DNA of 64,000 bases from Candidatus Woesearchaeota archaeon (GTDB lineage Archaea > Nanobdellota > Nanobdellia > Woesearchaeales > JABMPP01), in contig JAGVYD010000009.1 in the NCBI GenBank assembly GCA_018303405.1, positions 195,045 through 259,044 of the forward strand, given 5' to 3'. This document shows positions 29,991 through 50,121 of this stretch, piece after piece. Under the pieces are notes generated by a model. It did not search any database. It was not told where the DNA came from and saw only the letters and a program-made list of their open reading frames with translations. Made by a program: the position numbers and the translations under genes. Positions within the stretch are counted from its first letter, which is position 1. Each line of letters begins with the position of its first letter.

Positions 29991-30272
29991 ACTTGTTTAT
30001 TATCAACTAAACTACTATATAAACTTTTTTATATTTATTATCAACAATTTCATAATATAATTACTTGTTTGTTGATTATCAACATATATGAATATAATTT
30101 TTTCGAGTATTCAGACATAGTCCCTATCCTCTCCCTGTACTAATACTCTACTCCATATCATACTTTATATTATATAGCTCATATATAATGCGCATAATAC
30201 ATTCATATACAGCTTAGATGCAATATGGCTTATAATAAAGATTGTATTATGCACATGAATCCCAAACTCTGA

Positions 30273-32842: not shown

Positions 32843-32860
32843 AAAATGACCCCAGGCACG

Positions 32861-33091
32861 CTACGGTGAGGATGCAGTAGCTTCTTGCGCTGAAGCAGGC
32901 TCAGAAGGAAGAATGTTCAAGCTAACCTGGCCCTGAACAACCGGCACTCTTGTTGATTGGGCATAATCTGCCCTGTCGAGCACAGTCCAGACGCCCAAAA
33001 CAGATACAACAATCGTAATAACTAAAAGGATTACAACAGTTTTTTTTGATACATCCATTGATCCCGCACCCTGAATTGGCATTTCTTCCAT
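32861..33091 (-). CDS. Mini-protein: signal anchor plus one beta-strand motif only
   Basis: 76 aa. KKTVVILLVITIVVSVLGVWTVL is followed by VVQGQVSLNILPSE, the same G-x-V-x-x-x-I strand that opens the neighbouring subunit-like proteins. Confidence 0.4.
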   Translation of the reverse strand: MEEMPIQGAGSMDVSKKTVVILLVITIVVSVLGVWTVLDRADYAQSTRVPVVQGQVSLNILPSEPASAQEATASSP

Positions 33092-33096
33092 ATCCC

Positions 33097-33903: not shown

Positions 33904-33959
33904 ACCAAGTTACATGCACTATTTAAATTTTTCTATTCAGAAGTGGCACAGAAAGGCAA

Positions 33960-35171: not shown

Positions 35172-35452
35172 TTTTGCCGTGCCGTGAGCGTCACATTTTC
35201 TTTGTCTATCCAGTCGCTTTCCCCTGCTCCAAGGCTTTTCACGGAAAAGCCCGTGATGCCGCTTCCAATTGCCTTTACAGTGACCTCAATTTCAGTGTCG
35301 CCGGGGTTGCTGAGGCGCCAGGCATCACTCTCCTCTGCAACATCCAGCCCGATTCTGCTTTTCTTTTCGAAGGGGAAGGGGAGGACCAGCAACAGGCCGG
35401 CCAGGGTTAGGCAGACTATCAACAAAGCTGTTGCCGGGATTGTTTTTTTCAT
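35168..35452 (-). CDS. Small N-terminally anchored beta-rich protein
   Basis: 94 aa. MKKTIPATALLIVCLTLAGLLLVL is followed by about 60 beta-prone residues. Its stop overlaps the start of the next gene by 4 nt. Confidence 0.42.
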   Translation of the reverse strand: MKKTIPATALLIVCLTLAGLLLVLPFPFEKKSRIGLDVAEESDAWRLSNPGDTEIEVTVKAIGSGITGFSVKSLGAGESDWIDKENVTLTARQK

Positions 35453-35457
35453 TCCCT

Positions 35458-36738: not shown

Positions 36739-39700
36739 TTATCCTGTGCCCTGCACAAGCCTTCCTCCATTCTCCTTTATTAGCCTCGAGCTTCCATACT
36801 TGCTCACATTGCCCGCATTTGTCACGTTCGCGCCAAGAATTGTCATGTTGCTGTAAGTCCAGAGGTATATATTCTTTTTTTGCAGGTCGCAGTTATCCAA
36901 AATTATGCAATTCAATGCACTTAGGGTCCAGTTGCCTGATGAAGGACAGTTGCAAAGAGGCGACTGCACAGTTAGCCCCTGCTGTGATGTCTGGTTCAAA
37001 TTGCCTGCCAGGTCCTGCACATATGCAGTATAAGGGTATGCGCCAGGGCTCAGGCTTGTATAATTCTGGTACAGCTTGTATGTTCCTGCCCTGTAAGAGG
37101 CATTAATTTCCTGAATGGAAATAATCCTGTTCCATATCTTTACTTCATCAAGGATTCCAAGGTATGCCTGGGTTTCATCAAAGCCGCCGCATGCAGCGTC
37201 TTCCTCTTGCCCCAGAACAAGACACCCTGTGATTTGCAGGCTTCCATTTGACATGTTTTTTGAAATTTTTGGCACACCATCCTTGTACATGTAAACAGTT
37301 CCATTGTCGCCATCCCTTAATATCACAATATGATGCCAGTCACCGTCATTGAGCGTCACTCCTGTACTAAACGAAGCATCCTTAATGAAAACACTTGCGC
37401 CATAATTGAAAATCAAGAACTCATTATTCCCGGTTGCGGATGAGCCATGAATAGGTGTGCCAGACTTCGAAGTGTCTGAAGACTTGGCCCAGAATTCAAC
37501 TGTAAAATTATTCAGGCCATCCATTGCTGACCTGCTTAGGTTCACCCAGCTGGATGTTGTGCCGTGCAAAAGCACGCCGCTTCCAAACCTGCCGCTTGTT
37601 GTTGAGCCTGAAAAGACTGTCCCATTATTCCCGTAAGTTGACCAGTCCCTCGCAAATGTGGAATTTTCCCCTGATTCCCTGTTGAATCGCCACCATCCTT
37701 TCAGGCTTCTGCCGAAATCAACAAATGCTGTTCCAAGATAATCGTCTGAAACAGAAACATTCACAATAGCCCATGGCTCTGTTGTTATCAGCCCATTACT
37801 CTCAGTTGCCTCATCAAATGATATCTGCGGATAGACCTTGTCCACCTTTAGCTCAATCAATTCTGTTGCATTTACATTTCCCGCCCTGTCCTGCACATAA
37901 GCCTTGAAATTGTAGCTTGTGTTGTCAACAAGGTCTGTGAAATTGCGGTAGAGACTGTAAACGCTTGCATTATAAGTTGCGTTGATTTCCTCTGGCGACA
38001 ATGGGCGGTTGAAAATCTTGACGTCATCAATGAAGCCCGGGAAATTTCGCCATGCACCATTCTGTGTCCCTCCGATAAAAATTGAATTGTTAGTTTGTGA
38101 GGCATCCATGACCCCGCTTACAGCAGTTATTGTTATTGTCCTGCCGTCAATATAGGTCCTAATGTGGGTTCCATTGTAGGTCCATGCAATGTGGTGATAA
38201 GTGCGGTGGTCAAGAGTCACAGAAGAGGAATAATAATTTGTGCTGCCTATATATGTCTGGGACCTGACAATAACTGAGCCAGGATTGTCAAACAACTGCA
38301 CCCCATTCCCATTTCCCCAAAGGCCGTGGTGTATTATTTGTGTCTGGTTCGTGCCACCCCATTCCTGGGTCTGGTTGCGGACCTTGAACCAAAGCGAATA
38401 TGTGACATAGGAAAAATTCAGGGACGCATCAGCCGGAACCACGATCCTGTCCACAGCGCCATCAAATTCCATCCCTCTCCCCATTTTGCCTTCAGCATAA
38501 ACCGGGCAGCTGGAAGGCACGCATGTTGCATTATTCTCATAGCTTGACCAATCCCTGAAATAAGTGTCATTCTCGCCTGTCTCATTGTTGAATCTCAGCC
38601 ATAAAACCAGGCTCTTGTTCCAGTCAAAGAATGCAGTAACATTTGTGCTGTTGTCAAAAACAGTCACATTAACCCATGTCCAGTTCCTGCTGATGTAACT
38701 GCCATTCCTGTCATTTGTGTAGTCGAACGTGATATTGGGCTTGTCGCCATCGTACCAGGTTCCTGCCAGGCACACTTCCAATATGCCATCGCTGTCCGGG
38801 TCAGTTGACACATTATTGGCATAGCATGCAGAATCGTAAACGCATTTGCTGGCCTCATTGCAGCATGCCCTGTCGCTTGAGCTTGTTGTGCAGCTCCCTA
38901 AATCACATGTCCTTGAAAGCCCGTTTTCCCCACTGTCATCGCCGCAGCAGGCCGTAGCAGTGACATCCCCGCCAAGGTCCCAATTGCTTCCTCCTGTGAT
39001 TGCAGTGCAGATTTCTGAAGTGGAGTCCCCTCCCATCCAAAAACTGCCATGGCAGTATGCCTTTGTTGGGATGGCTCCAACCATTTCGCCTGTGTCATAG
39101 CATGTGTTGTTCAGGCCACAGCTTGTTCCACTCCTGCAGCATGTGTTGTTTGTTGTTGCGTTATATCCTGTTGGGACATCTACCCCTCCCCTGTCATAAA
39201 CATTATATTCTGTGCCATAGCTTGTCCTGTAAGCCTCAAGATTGTCAATAACAATCTGCATTTCAGTATCAGAATTTGAATAATCCCACATTCTCCAGTA
39301 ATAATCAGGGTTGGTCTGCGCAGGGGTTGTCAGTGTGCCATTGAAATGGCCTGACTCATTTGCCTTGCACGTAAATCCAGACATGCTTTTGGTAAATACT
39401 GAGCCATTGGCCAGATGGACTGTCCCTGTTGTTGTGGCAGCATCCTGGCAGCATGAATGGTTGTTGTCCCTGAACCGCATGTACCATCCAGAACCTGAAG
39501 AATCATTTATGCATTTGTAGTCGAACTCCACAGTAAAGGCAGTGCTTGGGAAATTTATTTCCGGAGTCCATTGTGCCATAACCTGGTCCCAGGTAGAATC
39601 GCCGTCAGCCTGGATATACCAGCTTCCGCCGTCTATGTTTTTCCCGCTGGAAATGACATAAAAGCAAATGTTTGCAGCGCCGCAGGTAGTGTCTTCTGTC

Positions 39701-42700
39701 CAGTTCCATCCGTCAGAGCCGCTGTATTCTGAAAACCTTCCATTTGTGAAAACAGTCAAGTCATCCCCGCAGCAGCCTAAGGTCGATGTGTCAGGATATT
39801 CCCCCACATTGCTTTCTCCTGCGTAAGCGGCATTCCAGCTTATGTTCAGGGCAAAGGTGCTGCTTCTTGGGCTGATGACACCCTTCTCACGGCCGCAAAC
39901 ATAGCCGCACCAGTAATCTGCGTAATCCGATGTATCGCATTGCAGCCATGTTCCTGTCCCGCCAGATGAATAGCAATAGCCTATACTGTCATTCCCGCCA
40001 AGATTCAGATGATTATATGCAGAATTCGAATTTACAGCAGGAGTGGCATCTGGAGTGAAACATGATTCACCTGCAACGCAATCAGACGTTGCGCTGCAGC
40101 ATGCATCTTCAGCATTAACAAAAACAAGCTCAGAAGAGGAGCTGTAGTTCCTCTCTATTATTGTATTTTCATTTGAATCGTCGCCGCAACACGTGCTGTA
40201 AGAGCCTTCGCCGCCAATGCTCCAATTATATGTTGATGTGCAGCCTGATGCAGATGATGTGCAAAGTGACTCGTTTGTGTCCCTGTCATAAAGGTAAGCG
40301 CTTATTGTGCAATAGCCTGCACCGCTGCAATTCTGGCCTCCATAGAATGTTTCGGATGAACAAAAGTCAGTATTGTTGCACTGGCCTGTCACTGTAGTGC
40401 CGCTGCCAGAGCAATAAGTCCCAATATTGTTATTATAGCTGGTGGTAGCGCATGAAGCAGCACCGCCTGTGCAGAAGCCCGTTCGCCCTGTTGTAACACA
40501 GACGCTTGCGCATGAAGTATTGGTCGCTGAACAATCATTGTTTGGATCGTCATTTGCATTGGCATAGGTGCACGTTCCACTTCCACTGCAATACCGGCAT
40601 GTGCCTGAGCATGTTGTTCCAACTGTGTCTTTTGTGGCGTTTGCAATATTATTGCATGTTCCTGCGCCATCACATTCCTTGCAATCGTAGCAATTTGCTG
40701 CTTCCTGCCCTGATGCAGGCGTCTGGCAGGTTGAATAGCCAGCAGTGCATTGGCTTGCGCAGGTTCCAGAGCATGTAGTTCCGGTGTTATAGCCGCAGGT
40801 TCCTGAAGTTCCTGAGCATACTGAACTGTCCAATATTGTCTGGCCAGAGCATGTGTAGGAGCCTGTGCAATCACCTTGCGGATCAGTGTTTCCAGGAACT
40901 ATTTCACAAAACTCATCTCCAAATCCATCCCATTCACAGCACGTGCCTATATCATTACATTCAACTTGTGTATCACAAAAAACGCCTGTGCAAGTGCTGC
41001 CACAGACACCCTGGCCGCGATACTGCGTATCATATCCTGTGCCATTTACTGCAATGCCTGTGAAATTGTTTGTAATGTTATTTGTTATTGCATTGTAAAT
41101 ATTCAACCGCGACCATACTACTGTCTCTTCATTTATTATGCTCCCTGTTGCTATCAGCAATTTTTTCATTTGTGCATTATCCAAGGAATCATTGTACTGG
41201 TAAACCAAAGCAGCCCCTCCTGAAACAAAAGCTGCAGATATGCTTGTTCCTGAGGCAAGTTCCGCATTTGCATTATGGTCAACAGAATCAATGTCCTCCC
41301 CAGGGGCCAAAAGGACAATGGCATTATTGGAGCTGGTAAGGGCAGATAGACGGTCATTTTCTGTGGACGCACCAACTGGAAGAGCTGTTTCTGCACAAGC
41401 AGGGCTGACAATTGTGTTGTTGTACGTGTTTCCTGCTGCTGCAACAGTAAGTATGCCAAGCCCGCTCAGCTCATCGACTTTTTGCGCAACCGGATTATCA
41501 TAGCATATCCCAGTATATCCCCCTGCACCAATGCTCATGGATATTATGTCAACATTTTGCTCCTTGCAATATTCCAGCCCTGCGAGAATGTCTGATTCAT
41601 AGCCAATTCCCTGGGAATCCAATACCTTCACTGCTATCAGCTGGGCAGCAGGCGCCATCATGTATGTGATGTACGAAACCAAGGTGCCGTGGCCATTGTC
41701 ATCCTGGTAATCATTGGTCTGGGCCAGGACATTATACCCATACGCAGTGTTCTGCACAACTGATGGGTTTACTCCTGTGTCAAGGGCGCAAATCTTTATT
41801 CCTGAGCCGTCCAATTGCAAGCCATAGGCTGTGTTGAGATAATACTCTTTTGCCTCACCAAGCATGATTATCTTTGATGAGTTTTCAAACAGGAGGCTGA
41901 CTGGCTGGTCAAGATAAACCTTTTCAATGCCCTTATTGCCTGTCAATTTCGACAGCCTTGTCTTGTCCATATGGGCAACATCAATATCATCAGTAACAGC
42001 TATTTCGCCTATTTTTTTGCTTGATGGGGTTTTGTACTTCACAATAACCCTAATGGGCTCAGAAGCCCTCTCCAATTCATGGATTACATTCTTGTCAACA
42101 TGGAACTGGTATCTTGCAAATATCAAATCCTCTTCTGTGTAATTGGAGGCATTCTCCACCCAGCCTTGGTCCAGGTCAGGAAACAGGCCAGTGATGAAGG
42201 ACAATCCTTTCCCAGATTCATTACCTGCCTGGCTTTGGTCCATGTCTGTGTCCATTACATAATCAATTCTGTCAATTGTGACAGCTGAATCATCAACTTC
42301 AAAAACCAGTGAATAATTTTCCCCTGGCAAAGAAATGTTGCAGGTGTCTTTGCATTCAAGGCTGAAATCCCGGATATCAGGCTCAACAAATGATGCAGGC
42401 AACTCTGCCCATTGGCCTGAATAAACGCTGTCATCAGCTTCGTCGTAATACACCACCTGCGCCCTTACTATGTTGTCATTTCCAGCTGAATTTTTCCCAA
42501 CAAAAACATTGTAAGCGTCATCCCATCCTGGCGCTGATGGAATAAACCCAAGGACATTGCAGCATGATTCGCTGCCATAGCATTCATATGACGATTCAGC
42601 AGTTTCAATGTTTTCAATTTCCCATCTTGTGCATGTGCCCTCAACTTTTGCATCAATTGAGAATTCTGTTCCACTGGCATCAAAATCAACCACGCCTTTT

Positions 42701-43344
42701 ACAGATTCAACGCCGTTGTCATCCTGGTCAAATGCGGAGCCGGAATTGTAGGCAAGCTTCACTGAAATGTCCTGCGCCGGCACAAAATCTTCCTGCTTCA
42801 CTGCTTCACTCGGGGCTGATACGGGGAAAGATTCTCCCTGCCCAAGGCTGAGTATCTCCAATCTTGTGCCATTGAAACCAAGGTAAACCCTGGCAGGCCC
42901 TTCGCCAACCACTGCGCCAGTAAGCTTTACTGCAAGCAGGTTTCCCGGCACAGCAGGCACCCAGGCGTATTCACTGTTTTCTGAAAAAGTTTTGCCAACG
43001 GGCAAAGAGTACCCTATACCCTGGGCAGGCTCTTCAAGCACGGCAAGGCCAGTAATGCCTTGCCGCAGAAATAGAAAAAAGCCGGATATGAACACGATGG
43101 CCAGGAAAACTGCCAGGCCAACTGCCAAATATGTCTTGCCTGATTCAGTATGTTTCTTGATGGCATTTTCAAGCGTGGCAATATGGCTCTCGCTTTTGCT
43201 AATCCAGTGCAGCAGGTTTTCCCCCTTAATCCTTGTCTTTGGATTCCTGGCCTGCAGCTGGAGAAGCCTTGTGTGGAAGCGTTTCCACTCTTCCAAGCTT
43301 TTCCTAAGTCTCTCTAATCTACCCTTTCTTTCCGATGCTTTCAT
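36739..43344 (-). CDS. Giant type II-anchored surface protein: subtilisin-like (S8) protease, long Cys-rich region, two LamG/ConA-like lectin modules
   Basis: The tracked start is TTG and the ATG two codons in is used. Has an N-terminal cytoplasmic coiled coil and a TM helix (YLAVGLAVFLAIVFISGFFLF). The S8 triad lies in order ICALDTGV / DDNGHGT / GTSISAAFVSGGAA (DNA about 41086-41838). The CCGDD motif occurs three times. LamG-like modules lie at about 37963-38610 and 37093-37695 (FDGAVDRIVVP...HHIAWTY...GFIDDVKIFNR; ...WHHIVILRDG...LDEVKIWNR). Confidence 0.8.
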   Translation of the reverse strand: MKASERKGRLERLRKSLEEWKRFHTRLLQLQARNPKTRIKGENLLHWISKSESHIATLENAIKKHTESGKTYLAVGLAVFLAIVFISGFFLFLRQGITGLAVLEEPAQGIGYSLPVGKTFSENSEYAWVPAVPGNLLAVKLTGAVVGEGPARVYLGFNGTRLEILSLGQGESFPVSAPSEAVKQEDFVPAQDISVKLAYNSGSAFDQDDNGVESVKGVVDFDASGTEFSIDAKVEGTCTRWEIENIETAESSYECYGSESCCNVLGFIPSAPGWDDAYNVFVGKNSAGNDNIVRAQVVYYDEADDSVYSGQWAELPASFVEPDIRDFSLECKDTCNISLPGENYSLVFEVDDSAVTIDRIDYVMDTDMDQSQAGNESGKGLSFITGLFPDLDQGWVENASNYTEEDLIFARYQFHVDKNVIHELERASEPIRVIVKYKTPSSKKIGEIAVTDDIDVAHMDKTRLSKLTGNKGIEKVYLDQPVSLLFENSSKIIMLGEAKEYYLNTAYGLQLDGSGIKICALDTGVNPSVVQNTAYGYNVLAQTNDYQDDNGHGTLVSYITYMMAPAAQLIAVKVLDSQGIGYESDILAGLEYCKEQNVDIISMSIGAGGYTGICYDNPVAQKVDELSGLGILTVAAAGNTYNNTIVSPACAETALPVGASTENDRLSALTSSNNAIVLLAPGEDIDSVDHNANAELASGTSISAAFVSGGAALVYQYNDSLDNAQMKKLLIATGSIINEETVVWSRLNIYNAITNNITNNFTGIAVNGTGYDTQYRGQGVCGSTCTGVFCDTQVECNDIGTCCEWDGFGDEFCEIVPGNTDPQGDCTGSYTCSGQTILDSSVCSGTSGTCGYNTGTTCSGTCASQCTAGYSTCQTPASGQEAANCYDCKECDGAGTCNNIANATKDTVGTTCSGTCRYCSGSGTCTYANANDDPNNDCSATNTSCASVCVTTGRTGFCTGGAASCATTSYNNNIGTYCSGSGTTVTGQCNNTDFCSSETFYGGQNCSGAGYCTISAYLYDRDTNESLCTSSASGCTSTYNWSIGGEGSYSTCCGDDSNENTIIERNYSSSSELVFVNAEDACCSATSDCVAGESCFTPDATPAVNSNSAYNHLNLGGNDSIGYCYSSGGTGTWLQCDTSDYADYWCGYVCGREKGVISPRSSTFALNISWNAAYAGESNVGEYPDTSTLGCCGDDLTVFTNGRFSEYSGSDGWNWTEDTTCGAANICFYVISSGKNIDGGSWYIQADGDSTWDQVMAQWTPEINFPSTAFTVEFDYKCINDSSGSGWYMRFRDNNHSCCQDAATTTGTVHLANGSVFTKSMSGFTCKANESGHFNGTLTTPAQTNPDYYWRMWDYSNSDTEMQIVIDNLEAYRTSYGTEYNVYDRGGVDVPTGYNATTNNTCCRSGTSCGLNNTCYDTGEMVGAIPTKAYCHGSFWMGGDSTSEICTAITGGSNWDLGGDVTATACCGDDSGENGLSRTCDLGSCTTSSSDRACCNEASKCVYDSACYANNVSTDPDSDGILEVCLAGTWYDGDKPNITFDYTNDRNGSYISRNWTWVNVTVFDNSTNVTAFFDWNKSLVLWLRFNNETGENDTYFRDWSSYENNATCVPSSCPVYAEGKMGRGMEFDGAVDRIVVPADASLNFSYVTYSLWFKVRNQTQEWGGTNQTQIIHHGLWGNGNGVQLFDNPGSVIVRSQTYIGSTNYYSSSVTLDHRTYHHIAWTYNGTHIRTYIDGRTITITAVSGVMDASQTNNSIFIGGTQNGAWRNFPGFIDDVKIFNRPLSPEEINATYNASVYSLYRNFTDLVDNTSYNFKAYVQDRAGNVNATELIELKVDKVYPQISFDEATESNGLITTEPWAIVNVSVSDDYLGTAFVDFGRSLKGWWRFNRESGENSTFARDWSTYGNNGTVFSGSTTSGRFGSGVLLHGTTSSWVNLSRSAMDGLNNFTVEFWAKSSDTSKSGTPIHGSSATGNNEFLIFNYGASVFIKDASFSTGVTLNDGDWHHIVILRDGDNGTVYMYKDGVPKISKNMSNGSLQITGCLVLGQEEDAACGGFDETQAYLGILDEVKIWNRIISIQEINASYRAGTYKLYQNYTSLSPGAYPYTAYVQDLAGNLNQTSQQGLTVQSPLCNCPSSGNWTLSALNCIILDNCDLQKKNIYLWTYSNMTILGANVTNAGNVSKYGSSRLIKENGGRLVQGTG

Positions 43345-43447
43345 CGGCAACCCCGGCCTCTTTATTGATAATCAAGCGAATAATCGTAACCCACAGAAGG
43401 AACCAGCCTGCGAACGCTATGCAGGAATGGTTTTTTCATTGTGAGGC

Positions 43448-46447
43448 TTATGGACATGTTGCATCAATTGTGTTTGTTGATTGTATGATAATGCAGCCGG
43501 AGGCGTTTACAAAGATTGAATTGGTGCCGGACTCAAAGGCAATAGCTTCAACTGTGAGGTTGCCTGTAATCACAACTTCGTCATCAGTCCCGGCTGACAA
43601 TGTTATTTTGTCTATTAGGACAGTGCCTGCCTGTCCAATTGTTATATCATCATTAGCTGCGTCAAAGCTCAGAATATTCCTCATGCTGGAGCCATCACCT
43701 GAATATATGGCACCTGTTCCTGACGCGCCTGTCTGCCATACCATGACTGCATCAGTTTTCCCGTCGAGAGACTGATTGAAATAGCCAGGAGTCACATTCA
43801 AGGGGCCGGATGTGAGATTTGCAGTTACTCTTGCGCTGCCTTGCACATGAAGGGTGTCTTTCGGGCTGCTTGTGCCTATGCCGACTGTTCCTGAGTTGTT
43901 GATGACCATGGCGATGGTTCCGGTGCCAGGCCCTGATGTCGCGCCAACCTCGAAAACCAGGTCATCCCAGGATGCGAGCTTCAGGCTGTTCACGCTTCTT
44001 GTCATGCTGAAAAGGTGTGTTGAACTGGAATAGCCCTCAAACCCATCGCCTCCGCTGGCCACTTCTGACCTTATGTTGCCGCCTGAAATATGCAGCTTGG
44101 TAGATGGAGCAATACCTATTCCTACGTTGCCTGTCCCATCAACAAGCAGGCCAGAGCCTGAACCGCTGCCAGTCACATTAAGAGTGCCTTTCAGATGCAA
44201 AGTATAAGAGGGAGTGGTTGTATTGATGCCGACATTCCCATTTTTGTCCAGAGTCAAGCCATCTGACCAAGTTACAGTGCCCCCGGCCGCGACATCCTTT
44301 GCATATCTCATGCTGAACAAATCGCTGTATTTATATAATGCAAAGTTTGATGTTGATGAGCTTTTCCAGCTCCCTGCCCAGTAGGCATCGAAAACAAGGC
44401 CTGTATTGTTGTGGCTATAAGCCAAAAGCTGTGCCACCGGATGAGTATCTGCAGTTGTATGGAACTGTAGATGGGGACCTGCTACACTTCTGTCATCTCC
44501 ATAAATCCTTAATTTTGCCCCGCCCGAACCTGAATAATTTATTGGGCCAATGCTAACATTACCTGAGCCGTCTACAAATAATACTCCCGGGCCAGTTGCG
44601 TTGCCGGAGACATTCAGCGTTCCACGGACTTCCAATGCACTTGTCGGGTTAGTAGTGTTTATCCCAAATTCCCCGGATGTTTCAATAACAACCCGATTAG
44701 TGGCACCATCTCCAGTGGCAATATAAAATTCGTTACCGCCTGTTCCTGCAACGTCACTGTCCATTAAGCCATGTGACCACTCCGTCGCGCCACCACCTGT
44801 TGCATATCTCACCCTTGCACCCCGGTTTGTCGCAGCCCTGTCCAATGAGAAATCTGCATTGTCAGCAGAATCAACTGTAACACCTGCTGCTGTACCAGCC
44901 ACTGTGACATCACCGCCTGTCGGGGTTATGGTCAAATCACCATTGGTGTCAGAAAGGAATGTTGTGTAAGATGAGCCATCAGCAAAAGTTAGCCGCAACT
45001 GGTCCGTGGTTGATGACAAAATATCCAGTTTTGCATCTGGCCCTGAAGTGTCTATCCCAATCAGTCCTGTGCTTTGCACCATTACTGAGCTGTTGAGCGA
45101 GCCGGAGCTGTTCCATAATGCAATATATCCAGCCGCGCCTGAGCCGTTGACAGAGCCTGTTCCGGCACCCCCTGAATCAGAACCACATGTCCCAACTCCG
45201 CTGCTCCATTTGAGAACTTGGTCATCCGCACAGTTGGTGGCAAGGACAATATTTGTTGCATTTAATGTTCCGGAAACAACAAGTTTTGAGCCAGTTATGT
45301 TGGTGCCAATGCCAACATTTCCGGAAGAATCCAGAACCAAAACCTCACTGCCCTGCGCCGCCGAGCCTGGATAGAAATTTATGTCACCCGAAGCTTCTAT
45401 ATTCAGGGCATTTGCCTTTTGTGCAAGGCCGCTTCTTCCGACATTTATTTTTGCGAAGGCTGCATCAGCTGTGCCCATTATTAAGAATGTATTCTGGTTT
45501 GCAGCTGTGTTGTTTATTAGTACACCATTTGTGCTTGAAGATGTGATTATTGTCAATGGTGCAATGGGGGCGGACGTCCCGATGCCTACCTTGCCAGAAG
45601 AATCAACCATTAATCCCGTTGTCCCTCCGGGAGACGCGTTGAACGTTCCTTGTATTTGGAGTGTTTGCGTAGCGTTGGATGTGTTTATACCCACTTTTCC
45701 ATCGGAGTCGATTCTTAATCGTTCAGTCATTATACCTGCATTTTTTCTGGTCTGGAATGTAATGGCTGTATCAAGATTTGTGGCATCGGTAATAATTGCA
45801 CTTATCCTACCAACATTTGCCCATGTACCACTAGCGCGTTGCGCATTCATAATAATTGCAGTTCCAATTCCATCTTCGGCAGTTCCTGTTGTTCCATGCC
45901 AAACCGAAAGAACATCGGTAACAGCATTGTTTGTCGAATCATTGGCCCTGACATCCAACACATGCGCTGGCCCTGTTGTTCCAATTCCAATTAATCCCGC
46001 ACTCTGATAAATTGTTGAGCTATTAATCTCATTAGTGCCATTCCACAAGGCAAGATAACCAGCAGTGCCTGAGCCATTAACACTACCTGAACCACCACCT
46101 CCTGCCTGCGAATCAACATAAGCCTTAGTTGCTGCATCTGTATCTGCAGTTGGCGTGGCAAGGCCTATTATCTTGTTCCCCGCCATGCTCAATACACCTG
46201 ATAAATTCAATGTGCCGGAAATATTCGCATTGCCTGCGACTGTAAGCCTAAATGAGGGATAGGTTGACCCAATTCCAAAATAATTTGTGATAAACAAGCT
46301 ATCCGGGAATGTGTAATTGCCTGACTCAAATGTGCCAGAGGCTATGGCAGCAGCTCCGTGGCCAGGGTCTGCTGCGAAGCTTTGCTGCGAAAGCAAAGCT
46401 ACAATGAGCACCATTGCAATTGTCCACTGAAATTTGTTGCTCCTCAT
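43448..46447 (-). CDS. Secreted tail-fibre-like repeat protein
   Basis: Signal peptide MRSNKFQWTIAMVLIVALLSQQSFA. Has MAGNKIIGLATPTADTDAATKAYVDS and repeated modules of the type GSG.AGY.ALWN......NSS.....GLIGIGT..P...LDV and GNVGIGT..P...L.V.GT.N, as seen in phage/bacterial tail-fibre-like proteins. The start could also be 46480. Confidence 0.62.
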   Translation of the reverse strand: MRSNKFQWTIAMVLIVALLSQQSFAADPGHGAAAIASGTFESGNYTFPDSLFITNYFGIGSTYPSFRLTVAGNANISGTLNLSGVLSMAGNKIIGLATPTADTDAATKAYVDSQAGGGGSGSVNGSGTAGYLALWNGTNEINSSTIYQSAGLIGIGTTGPAHVLDVRANDSTNNAVTDVLSVWHGTTGTAEDGIGTAIIMNAQRASGTWANVGRISAIITDATNLDTAITFQTRKNAGIMTERLRIDSDGKVGINTSNATQTLQIQGTFNASPGGTTGLMVDSSGKVGIGTSAPIAPLTIITSSSTNGVLINNTAANQNTFLIMGTADAAFAKINVGRSGLAQKANALNIEASGDINFYPGSAAQGSEVLVLDSSGNVGIGTNITGSKLVVSGTLNATNIVLATNCADDQVLKWSSGVGTCGSDSGGAGTGSVNGSGAAGYIALWNSSGSLNSSVMVQSTGLIGIDTSGPDAKLDILSSTTDQLRLTFADGSSYTTFLSDTNGDLTITPTGGDVTVAGTAAGVTVDSADNADFSLDRAATNRGARVRYATGGGATEWSHGLMDSDVAGTGGNEFYIATGDGATNRVVIETSGEFGINTTNPTSALEVRGTLNVSGNATGPGVLFVDGSGNVSIGPINYSGSGGAKLRIYGDDRSVAGPHLQFHTTADTHPVAQLLAYSHNNTGLVFDAYWAGSWKSSSTSNFALYKYSDLFSMRYAKDVAAGGTVTWSDGLTLDKNGNVGINTTTPSYTLHLKGTLNVTGSGSGSGLLVDGTGNVGIGIAPSTKLHISGGNIRSEVASGGDGFEGYSSSTHLFSMTRSVNSLKLASWDDLVFEVGATSGPGTGTIAMVINNSGTVGIGTSSPKDTLHVQGSARVTANLTSGPLNVTPGYFNQSLDGKTDAVMVWQTGASGTGAIYSGDGSSMRNILSFDAANDDITIGQAGTVLIDKITLSAGTDDEVVITGNLTVEAIAFESGTNSIFVNASGCIIIQSTNTIDATCP

Positions 46448-46701
46448 TTTTTCCTTTTCTCCCTGGCCCTGTTGTAGCATGTCCAGATGGTCCTGTCATC
46501 CCTGTTCAGCATCACGGCAATCTCATGGTATGTCAGCCCCATGGAATCCTTCATGAACTCAGAAATTGCCTCGAGCACGCTGACCTGCCTGTCCTGGAAG
46601 ATATGGGTTGGCAGGAGGATTTCAGCCGATTGCTGCATAGCAGTTGCTTTAGAATCATTCTTTCCTTGCTCCCGTTCCCTCTTTCTATTCGCCACTATCA
46701 C
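46444..46701 (-). CDS. Small helix-turn-helix protein (LuxR/HTH_10-like), first gene of the surface-protein operon
   Basis: VSVLEAISEFMKDSMGLTYHEIAVMLNRDDRTIWTCYNRAREKRKK is a C-terminal HTH pattern. The tracked start is GTG, and the first ATG would be 46638 (64 aa). Its stop overlaps the ATG of the next gene. Confidence 0.55.
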   Translation of the reverse strand: MIVANRKREREQGKNDSKATAMQQSAEILLPTHIFQDRQVSVLEAISEFMKDSMGLTYHEIAVMLNRDDRTIWTCYNRAREKRKK

Positions 46702-46727
46702 AACTCTTATTGCCGGAATGTTATTTA

Positions 46728-47140
46728 CTTACATTGTAAGGACTATAGTTTTTTTATTTATCGACTATAATTTAGTACATTGTAAGTAAACCTCTATTTA
46801 TATTTTTTTATTTTGTCCTGAAAACAGTCCCCCAACGAAAAAATACTTACAATGTAGGTATACCTTATTTATATTTATCGGAGTAATATTATTGCCTGAA
46901 GAAATTGACTGACAGTGTAAGTATTTATATTTTTTTCTATTAATCATTATATAATACAATATATCTTTTCTAATACATACAATGTAAGTATTAATTTTCG
47001 GCAATTATTTTTTTTAAATTTCTTACATTGTAAGTATACTAAATTAAAACTTTTTTTGTACTGACAATGTAGGTAATCCATATAGAAAACTTTTTGCCAG
47101 GACTGGAAGGGCAATTGAATCTTTACTTACATTGTAAGTA
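46728..47140 (+). repeat. Array of eight same-orientation copies of a 15-bp motif CT(T/G)ACA(A/T)TGTA(A/G)GTA in an AT-rich intergenic region
   Basis: Copies start at about 46728, 46775, 46846, 46909, 46976, 47022, 47061 and 47126. The core TTACA(A/T)TGTAA is a near-palindrome. Centre-to-centre spacing is irregular (39-71 bp). Confidence 0.8.
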
Positions 47141-47184
47141 ACAAATATCATAACTAAGAAAATTAAACCAGAAATCGGATTTCA

Positions 47185-48138
47185 CTAGGGCAATGTCCTG
47201 TATCTTGTGTTAATCAGGCCCCAAGAAAGGAATATCATTGCCAATCCTATGAGAAGAAGGGGCAGCTGCAATTTCATGTTGATTTTTTGCTGGCCCGTTG
47301 TCACAATTGTATTGAACGCCTGCTTCAGCGACTCAGGGTCTGAAGCAATAAAAAAACTGCCGCCGGTTGTCTGGGCAATGTACTTGAGCGTGTCCTCATC
47401 TAATGTGGAGACTATGTCCTGCCTGATAAAAGTCCCGCCTGACTCTGTTGCCATTCCGATTGTATGGATGACTATGCCGTGGCTTTGGGCATAGTCAATG
47501 CCTTCTATCACTGGAGTGCCCACTGTATCCCTCCCATCTGTCAAAAGCACAATGCTTCGGCTCATGTCTTCACTGACAAGAATATTCCCGGAAGTTACCA
47601 ACGCACCGCCAATATCAGTCCCGCCAACGCTTTTTACAGTTATCTTGTCTATGACCGGCTTAAGGTCATCCAGATTGTCGGTAATCTGGCTGTCCACGAA
47701 TGCAATTCCTGAAAATGAAACCAGGCCAACCCTTGTGCTGGAAGGCAGGGCGTCAAGAAAAATGACAGCCGCGCCTTTGGCTGCCTCAAGCCTGTTTGGC
47801 TCAAAGTCATTCGCAAGCATGCTGCTGGAGGCATCTATTGCAAGCACAAAACTCTGCTCGCTGCTTTTTCCCAAAAAAGTGTAAACAGGGTCAGCAGCTG
47901 ACATAATCAGAGTGGTGATTATCAAAATCTGCACGAGCAAAAGCCAAATGTTTTTTGAAATGAGGGTGCTGTTTCGTATATTTTCCTGGTCACCGCTCAC
48001 CCTCTTTATCGCTTCAAAATTCGCAAAAACCCATGACCTGGCGCGCAAAAACCTCAGCGAAAAAAGGTGGATCAGGATCAACAGCGGAATGCTGAGAAGC
48101 AGCCAAAGGTATTTTGGGTTAAGGAAAATCAATTCCAT
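47185..48138 (-). CDS. VWA domain membrane protein (BatA-like)
   Basis: N-terminal TM helices, the MIDAS-containing VLAIDASSSM...NRLEAAK, and a C-terminal TM helix. Confidence 0.85.
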   Translation of the reverse strand: MELIFLNPKYLWLLLSIPLLILIHLFSLRFLRARSWVFANFEAIKRVSGDQENIRNSTLISKNIWLLLVQILIITTLIMSAADPVYTFLGKSSEQSFVLAIDASSSMLANDFEPNRLEAAKGAAVIFLDALPSSTRVGLVSFSGIAFVDSQITDNLDDLKPVIDKITVKSVGGTDIGGALVTSGNILVSEDMSRSIVLLTDGRDTVGTPVIEGIDYAQSHGIVIHTIGMATESGGTFIRQDIVSTLDEDTLKYIAQTTGGSFFIASDPESLKQAFNTIVTTGQQKINMKLQLPLLLIGLAMIFLSWGLINTRYRTLP

Positions 48139-48139
48139 T

Positions 48140-49054
48140 TCATTTCCCCCTGAACAAGACCTTTCTCAGCTTTTCAACAAAAGGCTCGTCAGTATGAAGA
48201 ACAATGAATGTGCTTTGCGTCATGTGGAACATGTATCTTATATGCTCGAGCTGCTCTTCGTTGTATTTTTTGTACTTCTCTGCAATCCTGTTGGGGTCCA
48301 TGAGAATCTGGTCTTTGCTGAAGGGGTCGGAAATGACTATCTGCCCTATATGGTGGCCTGGCGGAAAAGCATCGTCCAAGGGGTCCCTGACCATTATCCC
48401 TACAATCTCATAGCGCGCAGATGAAAAAGTCTTGAATATCTCCTCCCATCCTTTTTTCAGGCCAAGAAAATCGCTTATAATTATGACCAATGCAGGCCTT
48501 TTTTGGTAGTTCATAAGCTGGGAAATCGCCCGCCCAAAATCACAGGGCCCTTCATAATAGATGGGGTTGGTAAGCTCCCTGACAATTTTCATGAATTGCC
48601 TCTTGCCAGCTGCTGGCGGAATAATGTTGCTCAGCCTGTCAGTGAACATCATCAGCCCGATGTTGTCGCCTGAATCTGCAAGGGCGTAGCTTAAGGTGGC
48701 AACCAGCTCTGCAGCGTATTCATTCTTAAGCTTGTCATGGGAGGCATACGACATGCTTGAGCTTACGTCAAGGAAAAATAGTATGTCCTTGTTCTGCTCC
48801 TCAGAATAAATCCTGATGAGGGTTTTTTTCGCCCGAAAGCTGGCAATCCAGTCTATTCTTCCTGCATCCTCACCAGGGACAAAATCACGGAATTTTTCAA
48901 ATTCCACGCCTTTAGAGCCGAAGATGGCCCTTCTTGAGCCGACCTGCCTTTTTCCTGAACCGGTCTGCTTTTCCTGGGAGCCTGCTATATCCTTCTTTGC
49001 CATGATGAACGCCTTTCTCATCAATGGCTTCAGGTCCAGCCTAATTTCTTTCAT
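48140..49054 (-). CDS. DUF58 domain protein
   Basis: FRDFVPGEDAGRIDWIASFRAKKTLIRIYSEEQNKDILFFLDVSSSM is the DUF58 signature. It sits between MoxR and VWA as in Bat-type operons. Confidence 0.85.
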   Translation of the reverse strand: MKEIRLDLKPLMRKAFIMAKKDIAGSQEKQTGSGKRQVGSRRAIFGSKGVEFEKFRDFVPGEDAGRIDWIASFRAKKTLIRIYSEEQNKDILFFLDVSSSMSYASHDKLKNEYAAELVATLSYALADSGDNIGLMMFTDRLSNIIPPAAGKRQFMKIVRELTNPIYYEGPCDFGRAISQLMNYQKRPALVIIISDFLGLKKGWEEIFKTFSSARYEIVGIMVRDPLDDAFPPGHHIGQIVISDPFSKDQILMDPNRIAEKYKKYNEEQLEHIRYMFHMTQSTFIVLHTDEPFVEKLRKVLFRGK

Positions 49055-49134
49055 ATCAAAGCCCCTTTATTATCCTGATAAAAAACATGCATTCATAATG
49101 ACAAGCTTTTCCTTTCCTGAAGATTGCATGGCAA

Positions 49135-50121
49135 CTATGGGATTGGCACTTTTTCGAGCATTTCCTTTATTACCATCTCAGATGTGACGCCTTCTGTCTG
49201 GCCTTCATAGTTTATTGATATCCTGTGCCTGAGAGTATCCAAGGCTACCTTCTTTACATAGTAGGGGGTTACAAAATTCTTGCCAGCCATCAGGGCTTCT
49301 GCCTTGGCACCAATGAACAATCCAAGGGTTGCCCTGGGCGATGCGCCCCATTCAATGTATTTTCCCAGCTTCATATCATACTTGATTGAGTTTCTTGTGG
49401 CATCCACTATTGAGACAATGTACCTCTCAACTTTATCATGCAGGAAAATATTCTTTGCCGCCTCCTGGATGTCAAGAATCTTGTTTTGGTCCATGATGGG
49501 CTTGAGGCCAAAGGATTCAAACTTGTTGATGGTCATGTTCCGCCTCAAAATTTCCTGCTCTTCGCGGATATTGGGGTAGCCAACATTGACCTTGAACATG
49601 AACCTGTCAACCTGCGCTTCAGGCAACGGGAATGTTCCAAGATTCTCAATTGGGTTTTGGGTTGCCATGACAAAAAAAGGGGCCGGCAATTCGAATGTCT
49701 CCCTGCCAATTGTGACCTGCCTTTCCTGCATTCCCTCAAGCAAGGAGGACTGCACTTTTGGCGGGGCTCTGTTGATTTCGTCTGCCAGCACAAAATTGGA
49801 AAATATCGGGCCTTTCAGCACGTAAAAACCCCTGTCCTTTTCATAAGTATTAATCCCCACAATATCAGATGGAAGGAGGTCTGGCGTGAACTGGATTCTC
49901 TTGAAGTCGCATCCCATCACAGTTGCAAGCGCCCTGACAAGCAGTGTTTTTCCGATTCCAGGCACGCCCTCAACAAGAATGTGGCTGCTTGCAATAACCC
50001 CCCTGAGCATGGCATTCACAGTTTCGTCCTGGCCAACCATGACTTTTGCTATTTCCTGCCTTACTGCCTGCAGCATTTCGCCATATTCCTTTATTTTTTC
50101 TTCAGCGGTATCTTTAGCCAT
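49135..50121 (-). CDS. MoxR-like AAA+ ATPase
   Basis: GVPGIGKT Walker A, VLADEINRAPPKVQSSLLEGMQERQVTI, ATQNPIE.....LPEAQ.DRF. Confidence 0.9.
   Translation of the reverse strand: MAKDTAEEKIKEYGEMLQAVRQEIAKVMVGQDETVNAMLRGVIASSHILVEGVPGIGKTLLVRALATVMGCDFKRIQFTPDLLPSDIVGINTYEKDRGFYVLKGPIFSNFVLADEINRAPPKVQSSLLEGMQERQVTIGRETFELPAPFFVMATQNPIENLGTFPLPEAQVDRFMFKVNVGYPNIREEQEILRRNMTINKFESFGLKPIMDQNKILDIQEAAKNIFLHDKVERYIVSIVDATRNSIKYDMKLGKYIEWGASPRATLGLFIGAKAEALMAGKNFVTPYYVKKVALDTLRHRISINYEGQTEGVTSEMVIKEMLEKVPIP

Follow-up and report, generated by a model that had tools for sequence, protein, structure and literature searches.

The 483-nt gap upstream of a minimal helix-turn-helix (mini-HTH) gene in this woesearchaeal archaeon contains eight copies of a 17-bp palindrome, TACTTACAWTGTAAGTA, and we give a probability of roughly two in three to the reading that this array is the self-regulating, probably repressing, operator of that gene and of the surface-protein genes downstream of it. 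Judging from comparative sequence data, such a regulator-plus-site pair appears to head the genes for large cell-surface proteins throughout an entire order of tiny DPANN archaea of the Woesearchaeota type. The core of the original prediction, namely that the HTH protein recognises the array and so controls both its own gene and the surface genes, is supported by every comparative test run: the co-occurrence of motif and HTH strengthens with HTH similarity, palindromes persist where the spacers between them diverge, the sites hold a fixed position beside TATA boxes, and half-site and recognition helix change together. A search of the literature returned no description of either this HTH family or this palindrome motif.

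The array and its TATA boxes

The AT-rich control region (46702..47184, minus strand) lies between the end of the MoxR-DUF58-vWA genes and the mini-HTH gene, within a window (the whole stretch of DNA analysed) of 64,000 nt. Each palindrome is built of two half-sites around a W centre, TACTTACA-W-TGTAAGTA. The most distal copy, site 1 (47124..47140), is a perfect TACTTACAWTGTAAGTA. It is followed, towards the gene, by site 2 (47059..47075, two mismatches), with the TATA-like TTCTATAT at 47080-47087, 4 nt upstream in the gene sense; site 3 (47020..47036, one mismatch), with TTTAATTT at 47041-47048, also 4 nt upstream; site 4 (46974..46990, one mismatch), which has no clear TATA box; and site 5 (46907..46923, three mismatches), directly abutted by AATATAAA at 46924-46931. 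Site 6 (46844..46860, one mismatch) has the canonical geometry, with ATATAAAT at 46867-46874, 6 nt upstream, and site 7 (46772..46788, three mismatches) has ATATAAAT at 46796-46803, 7 nt upstream. Finally, the proximal site 8 (46726..46742, one mismatch) stops 24 nt short of the GTG start. All eight copies stand at the places given for them before, and the 15-mer by which they had been described is a real repeat that forms the core of the longer palindrome; therefore, their alleged common orientation is void for the site itself, and any polarity comes from the flanks only.

Counting both strands, the window holds 15 motif matches against 0.5 expected, a number that none of 100 shuffles reached, and a scan of the whole 1.6-Mb genome found no 17-mer with two or fewer mismatches outside the 483-nt gap, so that the motif is unique to this locus. 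The array is 100% identical in three other metagenome assemblies, and since these were assembled independently from other samples, it is not an assembly artefact; these assemblies carry the identical protein and inform on assembly fidelity only, not on strain-level copy number. The JGI samples 3300025308, 3300025309 and 3300025154 have the locus in identical form. A comparison of copy number is provided by a species of the same genus (locus L012, HTH 86% identical), which has five sites instead of eight, with diverged spacers and retained palindromes. An operator of eight sites had been put forward as one with no known described parallel among archaeal regulators, but the number is not unique, since relatives carry from one to nine or more sites. 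The centre-to-centre distances, from the proximal end, are 46, 72, 63, 67, 46, 39 and 65 bp, and over 68 spacings no helical phasing was detected for periods of 10-11 bp (Rayleigh p = 0.17-0.42), the sole regularity being a modal unit of 40-49 bp; hence, cooperative binding on the same face of the helix is not indicated. A scan for bacterial-type promoters and terminators gave hits at chance level, from a model that is inapplicable to an archaeon.

The TATA-like boxes of the original prediction are real, but relative to the direction of the HTH gene they are located upstream of the palindromes and not after them: here, the boxes of sites 2, 3, 6 and 7 end 4-7 nt before the palindrome. Over 89 sites, a TATA box ends 3-9 nt upstream in the gene sense at 38, versus two with a box in the mirrored position; for the proximal sites of relatives, the figures are 17 of 26 versus none of 26. 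One third of the distal sites have their own TATA box, all of them directed at the HTH gene, and at one locus (L016) the ATG follows the palindrome by 6 nt. Transcription starts are predicted positions throughout. In the regulator's own promoter, the operator borders the TATA box on its downstream side, as in the LrpA/MDR1 type of control. Since site 7 lines up with the promoter-proximal site in L012, it is the probable main promoter/operator. As for TAAATAA (46721-46727), proposed before as the promoter of the HTH gene, it overlaps the gene-side edge of site 8 and may act as an additional TATA box that would give a near-leaderless mRNA.

A sigma-4-like protein linked to the sites across the order

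The mini-HTH gene (46444..46701, minus strand) may start at GTG 46701 (85 aa), at GTG 46695 (83 aa, the form used in public gene calls) or at ATG 46638 (64 aa). The protein had been called LuxR/HTH_10-like, a call that finds no profile match: neither PF00196 (LuxR/GerE) nor PF04967 (HTH_10) appears at E <= 0.1 in the Pfam search, where only Sigma70_r4_2 and HTH_23 do. PF08281 (Sigma70_r4_2) scores 18.2 bits (E = 0.0019), under its gathering cut-off of 25.7, and the NCBIfam hits are sigma factors alone, all of them sub-threshold; many tandem homologues carry precomputed PF08281 hits. A sequence-profile search of the PDB gave nothing significant, and only the fold search was informative. The AF2 model (pLDDT 91.9) has the four helices and the C-terminal recognition helix of sigma-70 region 4, and its top 30 Foldseek matches in the PDB are almost all region 4 of ECF sigma factors, with SigR (5fgm), sigmaE (2h27) and AlgU/MucA (8z6g) among them and sigmaE region 4 on -35 DNA included; their probabilities are 0.93-1.00, and the best ones have an rmsd of 0.5-1.1 Å over about 40 residues. 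The recognition helix, RDDRTIWTCYNRA, fits the RTIWT.Y.RA pattern of the Woesearchaeales mini-HTH module. The identity of a bacterial sigma factor was considered and rejected, given that the protein is an HTH domain only, with no sigma-2 domain, in an archaeal host.

As described before, the stop codon of this gene overlaps the start of the next one, in an ATGA at 46444-46447, which makes the two genes translationally coupled. The second gene (43448..46447, minus strand) encodes a secreted, tail-fibre-like protein of 999 aa with a signal peptide, which at this locus sits between the single-domain regulator and a type II membrane giant of 2203 aa (36739..43350, minus strand) composed of a cytoplasmic coiled coil, one transmembrane helix, an S8 subtilase and LamG/pentraxin modules. 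The giant's gene begins 97 nt behind the fibre gene, and because this gap has no AT-rich promoter region, both are probably co-transcribed; the proposed control over the full ~16 kb agrees with the gene spacing. At 14 of the 17 loci of relatives, the gene for a long secreted or membrane protein (at least 348 aa in the DNA examined) either overlaps the HTH stop or begins no more than about 55 nt from it.

The linkage between motif and HTH gene was approached from both ends. Starting from the protein, 13 of 17 loci have between one and nine canonical palindromes directly upstream of the HTH gene; starting from the motif, the HTH gene adjoins 15 of 27 loci, and three more are contig ends. The upstream neighbour varies (vWA, pilin-like or housekeeping genes), with the HTH gene as the constant partner. 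Within the order, the motif is carried by 46 of 151 genomes (a control pattern by two) and outside it by one of 47, and the HTH family is present in 42 of the 46 motif-positive genomes (Fisher p = 2e-5). When genomes are ranked by falling similarity of their best HTH homologue, the motif is found in 18/19, 15/28, 4/25, 5/30 and 4/49 of them. The family itself, nameless in Pfam and NCBIfam, counts 2,000 or more clusters at 50% identity, and its one to four tandem modules either stand alone or are joined to the cytoplasmic tail of giant proteins.

Protein and site also vary together. Recognition helices that are all canonical co-occur with palindromic sites, and five tandem proteins in which one helix has diverged (L020, L047, L028 and the C23 and C15 paralogues of the same genome) have asymmetric sites in which one TACTTACA half is kept; a YERVKK helix (L042) goes with the site TTCTTAYATTGTAAGWW. 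The counter-example is L036, where a diverged HTH stands beside canonical sites. The genome has four tandem-HTH paralogue modules with diverged or asymmetric upstream motifs, for which de novo motif searches returned a clear array at C23 only, of eight same-orientation copies of CATAATAAGTA, two direct repeats at C20 and ambiguous results at C21a and C15.

Probable repression, its alternatives and a possible surface signal

How would such an array work? In the reading that we favour, a dimer of the single-domain HTH would read each 17-bp dyad, with one recognition helix per TACTTACA half-site, and would cover approximately positions -18 to -1 of the promoter, keeping RNA polymerase off while TBP/TFB could still bind. 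The HTH protein would thereby silence its own gene together with the fibre gene, to which it is coupled in translation, and the silencing would probably extend over the surface-protein genes that come next, as far as about 30273. The additional units upstream, of which some are complete TATA-plus-operator modules, may supply more repressible promoters and/or a higher local concentration of repressor. Several observations do not sit easily with this reading: the distal TATA-bearing units are superfluous for simple repression, the mini-HTH has no sensor domain, four motif-positive genomes have no HTH hit, L036 pairs a diverged HTH with canonical sites, some motif clusters and single sites have no HTH gene beside them, and the spacings show no helical phasing. 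As regards the sign of regulation, repression takes slightly more than half of our total belief, and activation or dual control a modest minority share.

Would the same binding rather activate? The HTH could be a dedicated activator or promoter-specificity factor that sits at a fixed distance downstream of TATA, beside TBP/TFB, and turns on private tandem promoters of the surface-protein genes, possibly repressing at high occupancy as Ss-LrpB does. The narrow TATA-to-site spacing and the gene-directed boxes of the distal sites fit this well, since the units resemble repeated functional promoter modules more than auxiliary operators; sigma factors recognise promoters with a domain of this fold, and dual autoregulation that depends on concentration has a precedent in Ss-LrpB (PMC2995911). 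However, the known archaeal activators sit upstream of the BRE and not between TATA and start (PMC2995911), a dimer at about -18 to -1 would block the region that RNAP must melt and occupy, and beyond the DNA-binding domain nothing is left to touch the archaeal polymerase, all of which makes activation unlikely.

It is still less probable that another factor binds the palindromes, with the HTH/surface-protein operon as one target among others. Such a binder would account for the clusters and single sites with no adjacent HTH gene (L031-L040, L050-L053), which include motif clusters before membrane-protein genes (L034, L053) and single sites near housekeeping genes, and which are also consistent with a regulon controlled in trans by the HTH protein; the canonical sites beside the diverged HTH of L036 and the four genomes lacking an HTH hit point in the same direction. 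On the other hand, the presence of the motif climbs stepwise with the similarity of the best HTH homologue, the asymmetric sites track the tandem proteins with one diverged helix, and the only motif sites of this genome precede its only single-domain HTH gene with a canonical recognition helix.

The idea that the array is no transcription factor operator at all (replication iterons or an origin, small-RNA promoters, RNA hairpins or a decayed mobile repeat), two forms of which had been raised with the original prediction and found no support here, has in its favour an AT-rich gap with repeated sites, TATA boxes that could fire short transcripts and an MCM gene 5 kb away, but is very improbable in view of the vWA/BatA and HTH neighbours with no adjacent rep or orc1/cdc6 gene, an upstream neighbour that changes while the HTH gene stays, a motif that is not scattered in the genome, the lack of any meaningful Rfam match over 46300-47400, spacers whose lack of conservation implies no conserved RNA product, and a 17-nt palindrome that yields only a weak 7-bp A/U-rich hairpin. 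A ParR/parC-like centromere array was also considered and dropped, with no partition ATPase nearby and sites tied to TATA boxes.

DPANN archaea, which live attached to other cells, devote a large part of their tiny genomes to giant surface proteins. The giant of many relatives has itself a cytoplasmic tail made of four HTH modules, in the order extracellular region, transmembrane helix, basic stretch and 4xHTH, and the cytoplasmic coiled-coil N-terminus of the 2203-aa giant is conserved in the giant behind a paralogue. A speculative and rather doubtful extension is that the giants of the surface and the sigma-4-like HTH modules together constitute one lineage-specific transmembrane signalling device, of which this locus would be a split version: the free mini-HTH would be held or released by the giant's coiled-coil N-terminus, in an anti-sigma-like manner, and the contact of the surface protein with a host cell would be relayed back to the TATA-operator array. 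If so, the five paralogous modules of this one 1.6-Mb genome, whose upstream motifs are diverged or different, would be parallel circuits, each controlling one set of adhesins. The HTH-giant fusions hint at such surface-to-promoter signalling. In any case, a 64-aa protein and a 17-bp dyad with order-wide conservation offer a concrete candidate regulator-operator pair, testable in vitro without culturing the organism, which would permit regulon prediction across hundreds of uncultured genomes, and the tandem paralogues with asymmetric sites constitute a natural series of specificity swaps.

Comparison with known regulators

The closest parallels in mechanism are LrpA of P. furiosus and MDR1 of A. 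fulgidus, which bind just downstream of TATA and block the recruitment of RNAP (PMC2995911). Shared with them are an operator that follows the TATA box and precedes the start site in the regulator's own promoter, a predicted steric exclusion of RNA polymerase with TBP/TFB staying bound and, in the case of MDR1, the co-transcription of the regulator with its targets (PMC2995911). Unlike them, the protein described here has a sigma-4-like four-helix HTH instead of an Lrp/AsnC or DtxR fold and no effector domain, its array reaches eight or nine sites, many of which have a TATA box to themselves, and its predicted targets are giant surface proteins. Ss-LrpB of Sulfolobus solfataricus, which switches from positive to negative autoregulation or back depending on its concentration (PMC2995911), is similar in having several imperfect palindromes upstream of its own gene, bound there by separate dimers, but belongs to another protein family and has three regularly spaced sites with cooperative binding and DNA wrapping, in contrast to the eight irregular ones found here (39-72 bp), with no helical phasing.

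With the ECF sigma factors, the mini-HTH shares the best structural match and the weak PF08281 hit, both to region 4, and its gene, like those of sigma/anti-sigma operons, comes first in a probable operon that also encodes a membrane protein, and would be autoregulated. Archaea have no bacterial-type core polymerase for a sigma factor to bind. In contrast to an ECF, the mini-HTH does without a sigma-2 domain, would read a dyad as a (pseudo)dimer instead of a single -35 element, and belongs to a family whose modules come in tandem or fused to the cytoplasmic tails of the giants.

The site array and the gap that holds it

The AT-rich gap of 483 nt (46702-47184) between a vWA/BatA gene, the last of three co-directional MoxR-DUF58-vWA/BatA genes (47185-50121, minus strand), and the small minus-strand helix-turn-helix (HTH) gene (46444-46701) holds an array of eight sites, which start, from the distal site 1 to the gene-proximal site 8, at 47124, 47059, 47020, 46974, 46907, 46844, 46772 and 46726. 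All the copies of the original prediction are thus present, although their description as same-orientation repeats stands only in part, since each of them, when both strands are read, is a 17-bp palindrome (TACTTACA-W-TGTAAGTA, with 0-3 mismatches) that owes its direction only to its flanks. Pattern matches amount to 15 (both strands counted) against 0.5 expected, and none of 100 shuffles gets as many. The genome-wide motif check proposed earlier finds the array unique to this locus: all 17-mers with at most two mismatches in the 1.6-Mb genome (95% complete) fall within the gap, and CTTACA/TGTAAG hexamers cluster only in 46702-47184. The gap itself was assembled identically in three other metagenome samples.

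A σ region 4-like protein and its pairing with the site

The LuxR/HTH_10-like assignment proposed for the HTH protein is not borne out, as neither HTH_10 nor LuxR/GerE matches it in the Pfam search, where the sole match is a sub-threshold Sigma70_r4_2 (18.2 bits vs 25.7); its NCBIfam matches are sigma factors, all of them sub-threshold as well. A confident AlphaFold2 model (four helices, pLDDT 91.9, from an alignment of 61 homologues) finds its closest structures in region 4 of ECF sigma factors (rmsd 0.5-1.1 Å, about 40 residues), namely SigR (5fgm), AlgU (8z6g) and sigmaE region 4 on -35 DNA (2h27). The recognition helix is the last one (R-D-D-R-T-I-W-T-C-Y-N-R-A), and it is there that the invariant and near-invariant residues concentrate. 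A basic stretch upstream of Met22 is conserved between this protein and its same-genus homologue, which suggests that the GTG-started form of 83-85 aa is the real one.

Among 17 loci from Woesearchaeota/Nanoarchaeota genomes retrieved through the protein (HTH 52-86% identical), the palindrome lies directly upstream of the HTH gene in 13, in 1-9 copies each; one further locus (L020) has an asymmetric site variant, and in two (L018 and L023) another gene precedes the HTH gene and the promoter is located elsewhere. Conversely, 15 of the 27 loci retrieved through the motif adjoin an HTH domain gene, and 3 more are contig ends. Of 151 genomes sampled from the order, 46, from more than 40 families, contain the motif with at most one mismatch; a reversed control pattern occurs in 2. 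The HTH family is present in 102 of these 151 genomes and in 42 of the 46 motif-positive ones (Fisher p = 2e-5), and the frequency of the motif drops as the best HTH homologue becomes less similar, from 18/19 genomes (E < 1e-20) to 15/28 (1e-20 to 1e-17), 4/25 (1e-17 to 1e-13), 5/30 (weaker than 1e-13) and 4/49 (no match). In a phylum-wide sample, 31 of 154 genomes of the order carry it, vs 1 of 47 from the other orders of the class. The same-genus relative (L012) shares the vWA-HTH-fibre synteny and has kept the palindromes while the spacers diverged past easy alignment, and the proposed comparison of copy numbers gives five sites there vs eight in the window. Other genomes also have single perfect palindromes in intergenic positions, with no HTH gene nearby, beside genes of housekeeping type (TBP, ribosomal protein S2, a TrmB-like and a gyrase-like gene; L040, L050, L031/L032, L039); these may belong to a wider regulon or have survived by chance.

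The family comprises single domains and tandem double domains. In the loci compared, a canonical helix in every domain goes with a palindromic site. Five tandem proteins in which one helix has diverged (L020, L047, L028 and the own-genome paralogues from contigs C23 and C15) go with asymmetric sites: one half is still TACTTACA, the other is altered. Upstream of the C23 paralogue, for example, an AT-rich gap of its own contains (CTTA)CATAATAAGTA eight times in the same orientation, and at L042 a helix ending in TVYERVKK is paired with TTCTTAYATTGTAAGWW; L036, with canonical sites beside a diverged HTH, is the sole counter-example. This comparative evidence supports the predicted regulation by the HTH protein via the array.

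Surface-protein genes behind the predicted regulator

The stop of the HTH gene overlaps the start of the fibre gene, as predicted (ATGA), and a large secreted or membrane protein follows the HTH gene in 14 of the 17 protein-led loci, usually with the same kind of overlap. Here the fibre protein (999 aa, tail-fibre-like, with a signal peptide) is followed by a type II membrane protein of 2203 aa that contains S8 subtilase and LamG/pentraxin modules, and then by an Ig-like, fimbria-like cassette down to 30273. A 16-kb transcription unit behind the array is plausible, since no AT-rich gap over 100 nt interrupts it before 29991-30272 (282 nt, GC 0.26, palindrome-free). That gap, the first strongly AT-rich one downstream, probably serves the 191-aa, 920-aa and 1440-aa genes as a promoter region of their own. 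An internal promoter is possible, given the TTTAAATA in the 56-nt gap 33904-33959. The apparent gaps 35172-35457 and 32843-33096 (minus strand) have coding-like GC and short open frames with hydrophobic N-termini (e.g., MKKTIPATALLIVCLTLAGLLLV...), whose products would probably be small proteins, secreted or in the membrane, under the ORF-length cut-off.

The own genome has four further modules, all with tandem double-HTH proteins whose genes either adjoin or overlap the gene of a membrane or surface protein: C23:1350-2256 (partner of 764 aa), C21:24779-25336 (>2992 aa), C20:5226-5789 (843 aa; two direct GCACATTGTGGTAAGACA repeats) and C15:1261-1902 (284 aa). Among 1.84 billion representative proteins, a profile search found 2,179 family members at E <= 0.001 and, under the stricter limit of E <= 1e-10, 1,955; each has 1-4 modules. 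The top 150 matches include at least ten proteins of 779-5919 aa in which four C-terminal HTH modules form a cytoplasmic tail; two of them (P0123 and P0128) run from an extracellular region rich in sequons through one TM helix and a basic stretch to the four modules. Such fusions tie the family functionally to giant surface proteins and lead to the tentative hypothesis that both together form a signalling device. A candidate partner of the HTH protein would be the N-terminus of the 2203-aa protein (43141-43350, minus strand), a cytoplasmic coiled coil of about 70 aa (LEEWKRF...NP...HW) before a single TM helix; its homologue (E = 8e-10) is the N-terminus of the giant at C21:25333, behind the paralogue at C21:24.8 kb.

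Promoter geometry and mode of regulation

Across 26 loci with 89 sites, TATA boxes (TTTAWATA, up to one mismatch, ending 3-9 nt from the palindrome) lie upstream in the gene sense at 17 of 26 proximal and 21 of 63 distal sites, vs 0 and 2 in the mirrored position, mostly at a distance of 4-7 nt. In L016 only 6 nt separate palindrome and ATG, so the transcript has to begin close to, or right at, the edge of the palindrome that faces the gene. The archaeal TATA centre usually lies near -26/-27, and with that geometry the dyad would span roughly -18 to -1. In the window, the TATA-like boxes predicted at several copies are seen 4-7 nt from sites 2, 3, 6 and 7. The main promoter is most likely at site 7, which corresponds in the alignment to the proximal site of L012, and site 8 would then fall in the leader; alternatively, the TAAATAA that site 8 overlaps (46721-46727), already noted in the original prediction, may be a second TATA-like box.

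Neighbouring sites are most commonly 40-49 bp apart (34 of 68 spacings across loci; 3 of 7 in the window), about the size of one TATA-plus-operator unit, and L021 contains exact 43-bp duplications; no helical phasing was found among the 68 spacings. About nine tandem CCAGA pentanucleotides directly precede the TATA-palindrome units of L047 (reverse complement, ~1335-1385). In L016, L019, L024, L025 and L026 the array separates the HTH gene from a divergent cluster of pilin-like genes (N-termini of the MADISNKTL... type), so the same sites could control both directions. As for the distal TATA-bearing units, they might be additional repressible promoters; alternatively, they might have arisen by tandem duplication and increase the regulator concentration locally.

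Neither the HTH family nor the motif is described in the literature searched. The comparative evidence points to a new family within a known kind of system, that of transcription factors controlling their own gene through an operator array that overlaps the promoter; regulator and site are both small, conserved and directly testable. That the HTH protein acts as an activator or in a dual role, for which Ss-LrpB is a precedent, seems rather unlikely. LrpA and MDR1 bind their own promoters immediately downstream of the TATA box and exclude the RNA polymerase while coexisting with TBP/TFB (PMC2995911). The array shares this geometry, with its predicted operator just downstream of the TATA box, which makes negative autoregulation by the HTH protein the most economical reading.
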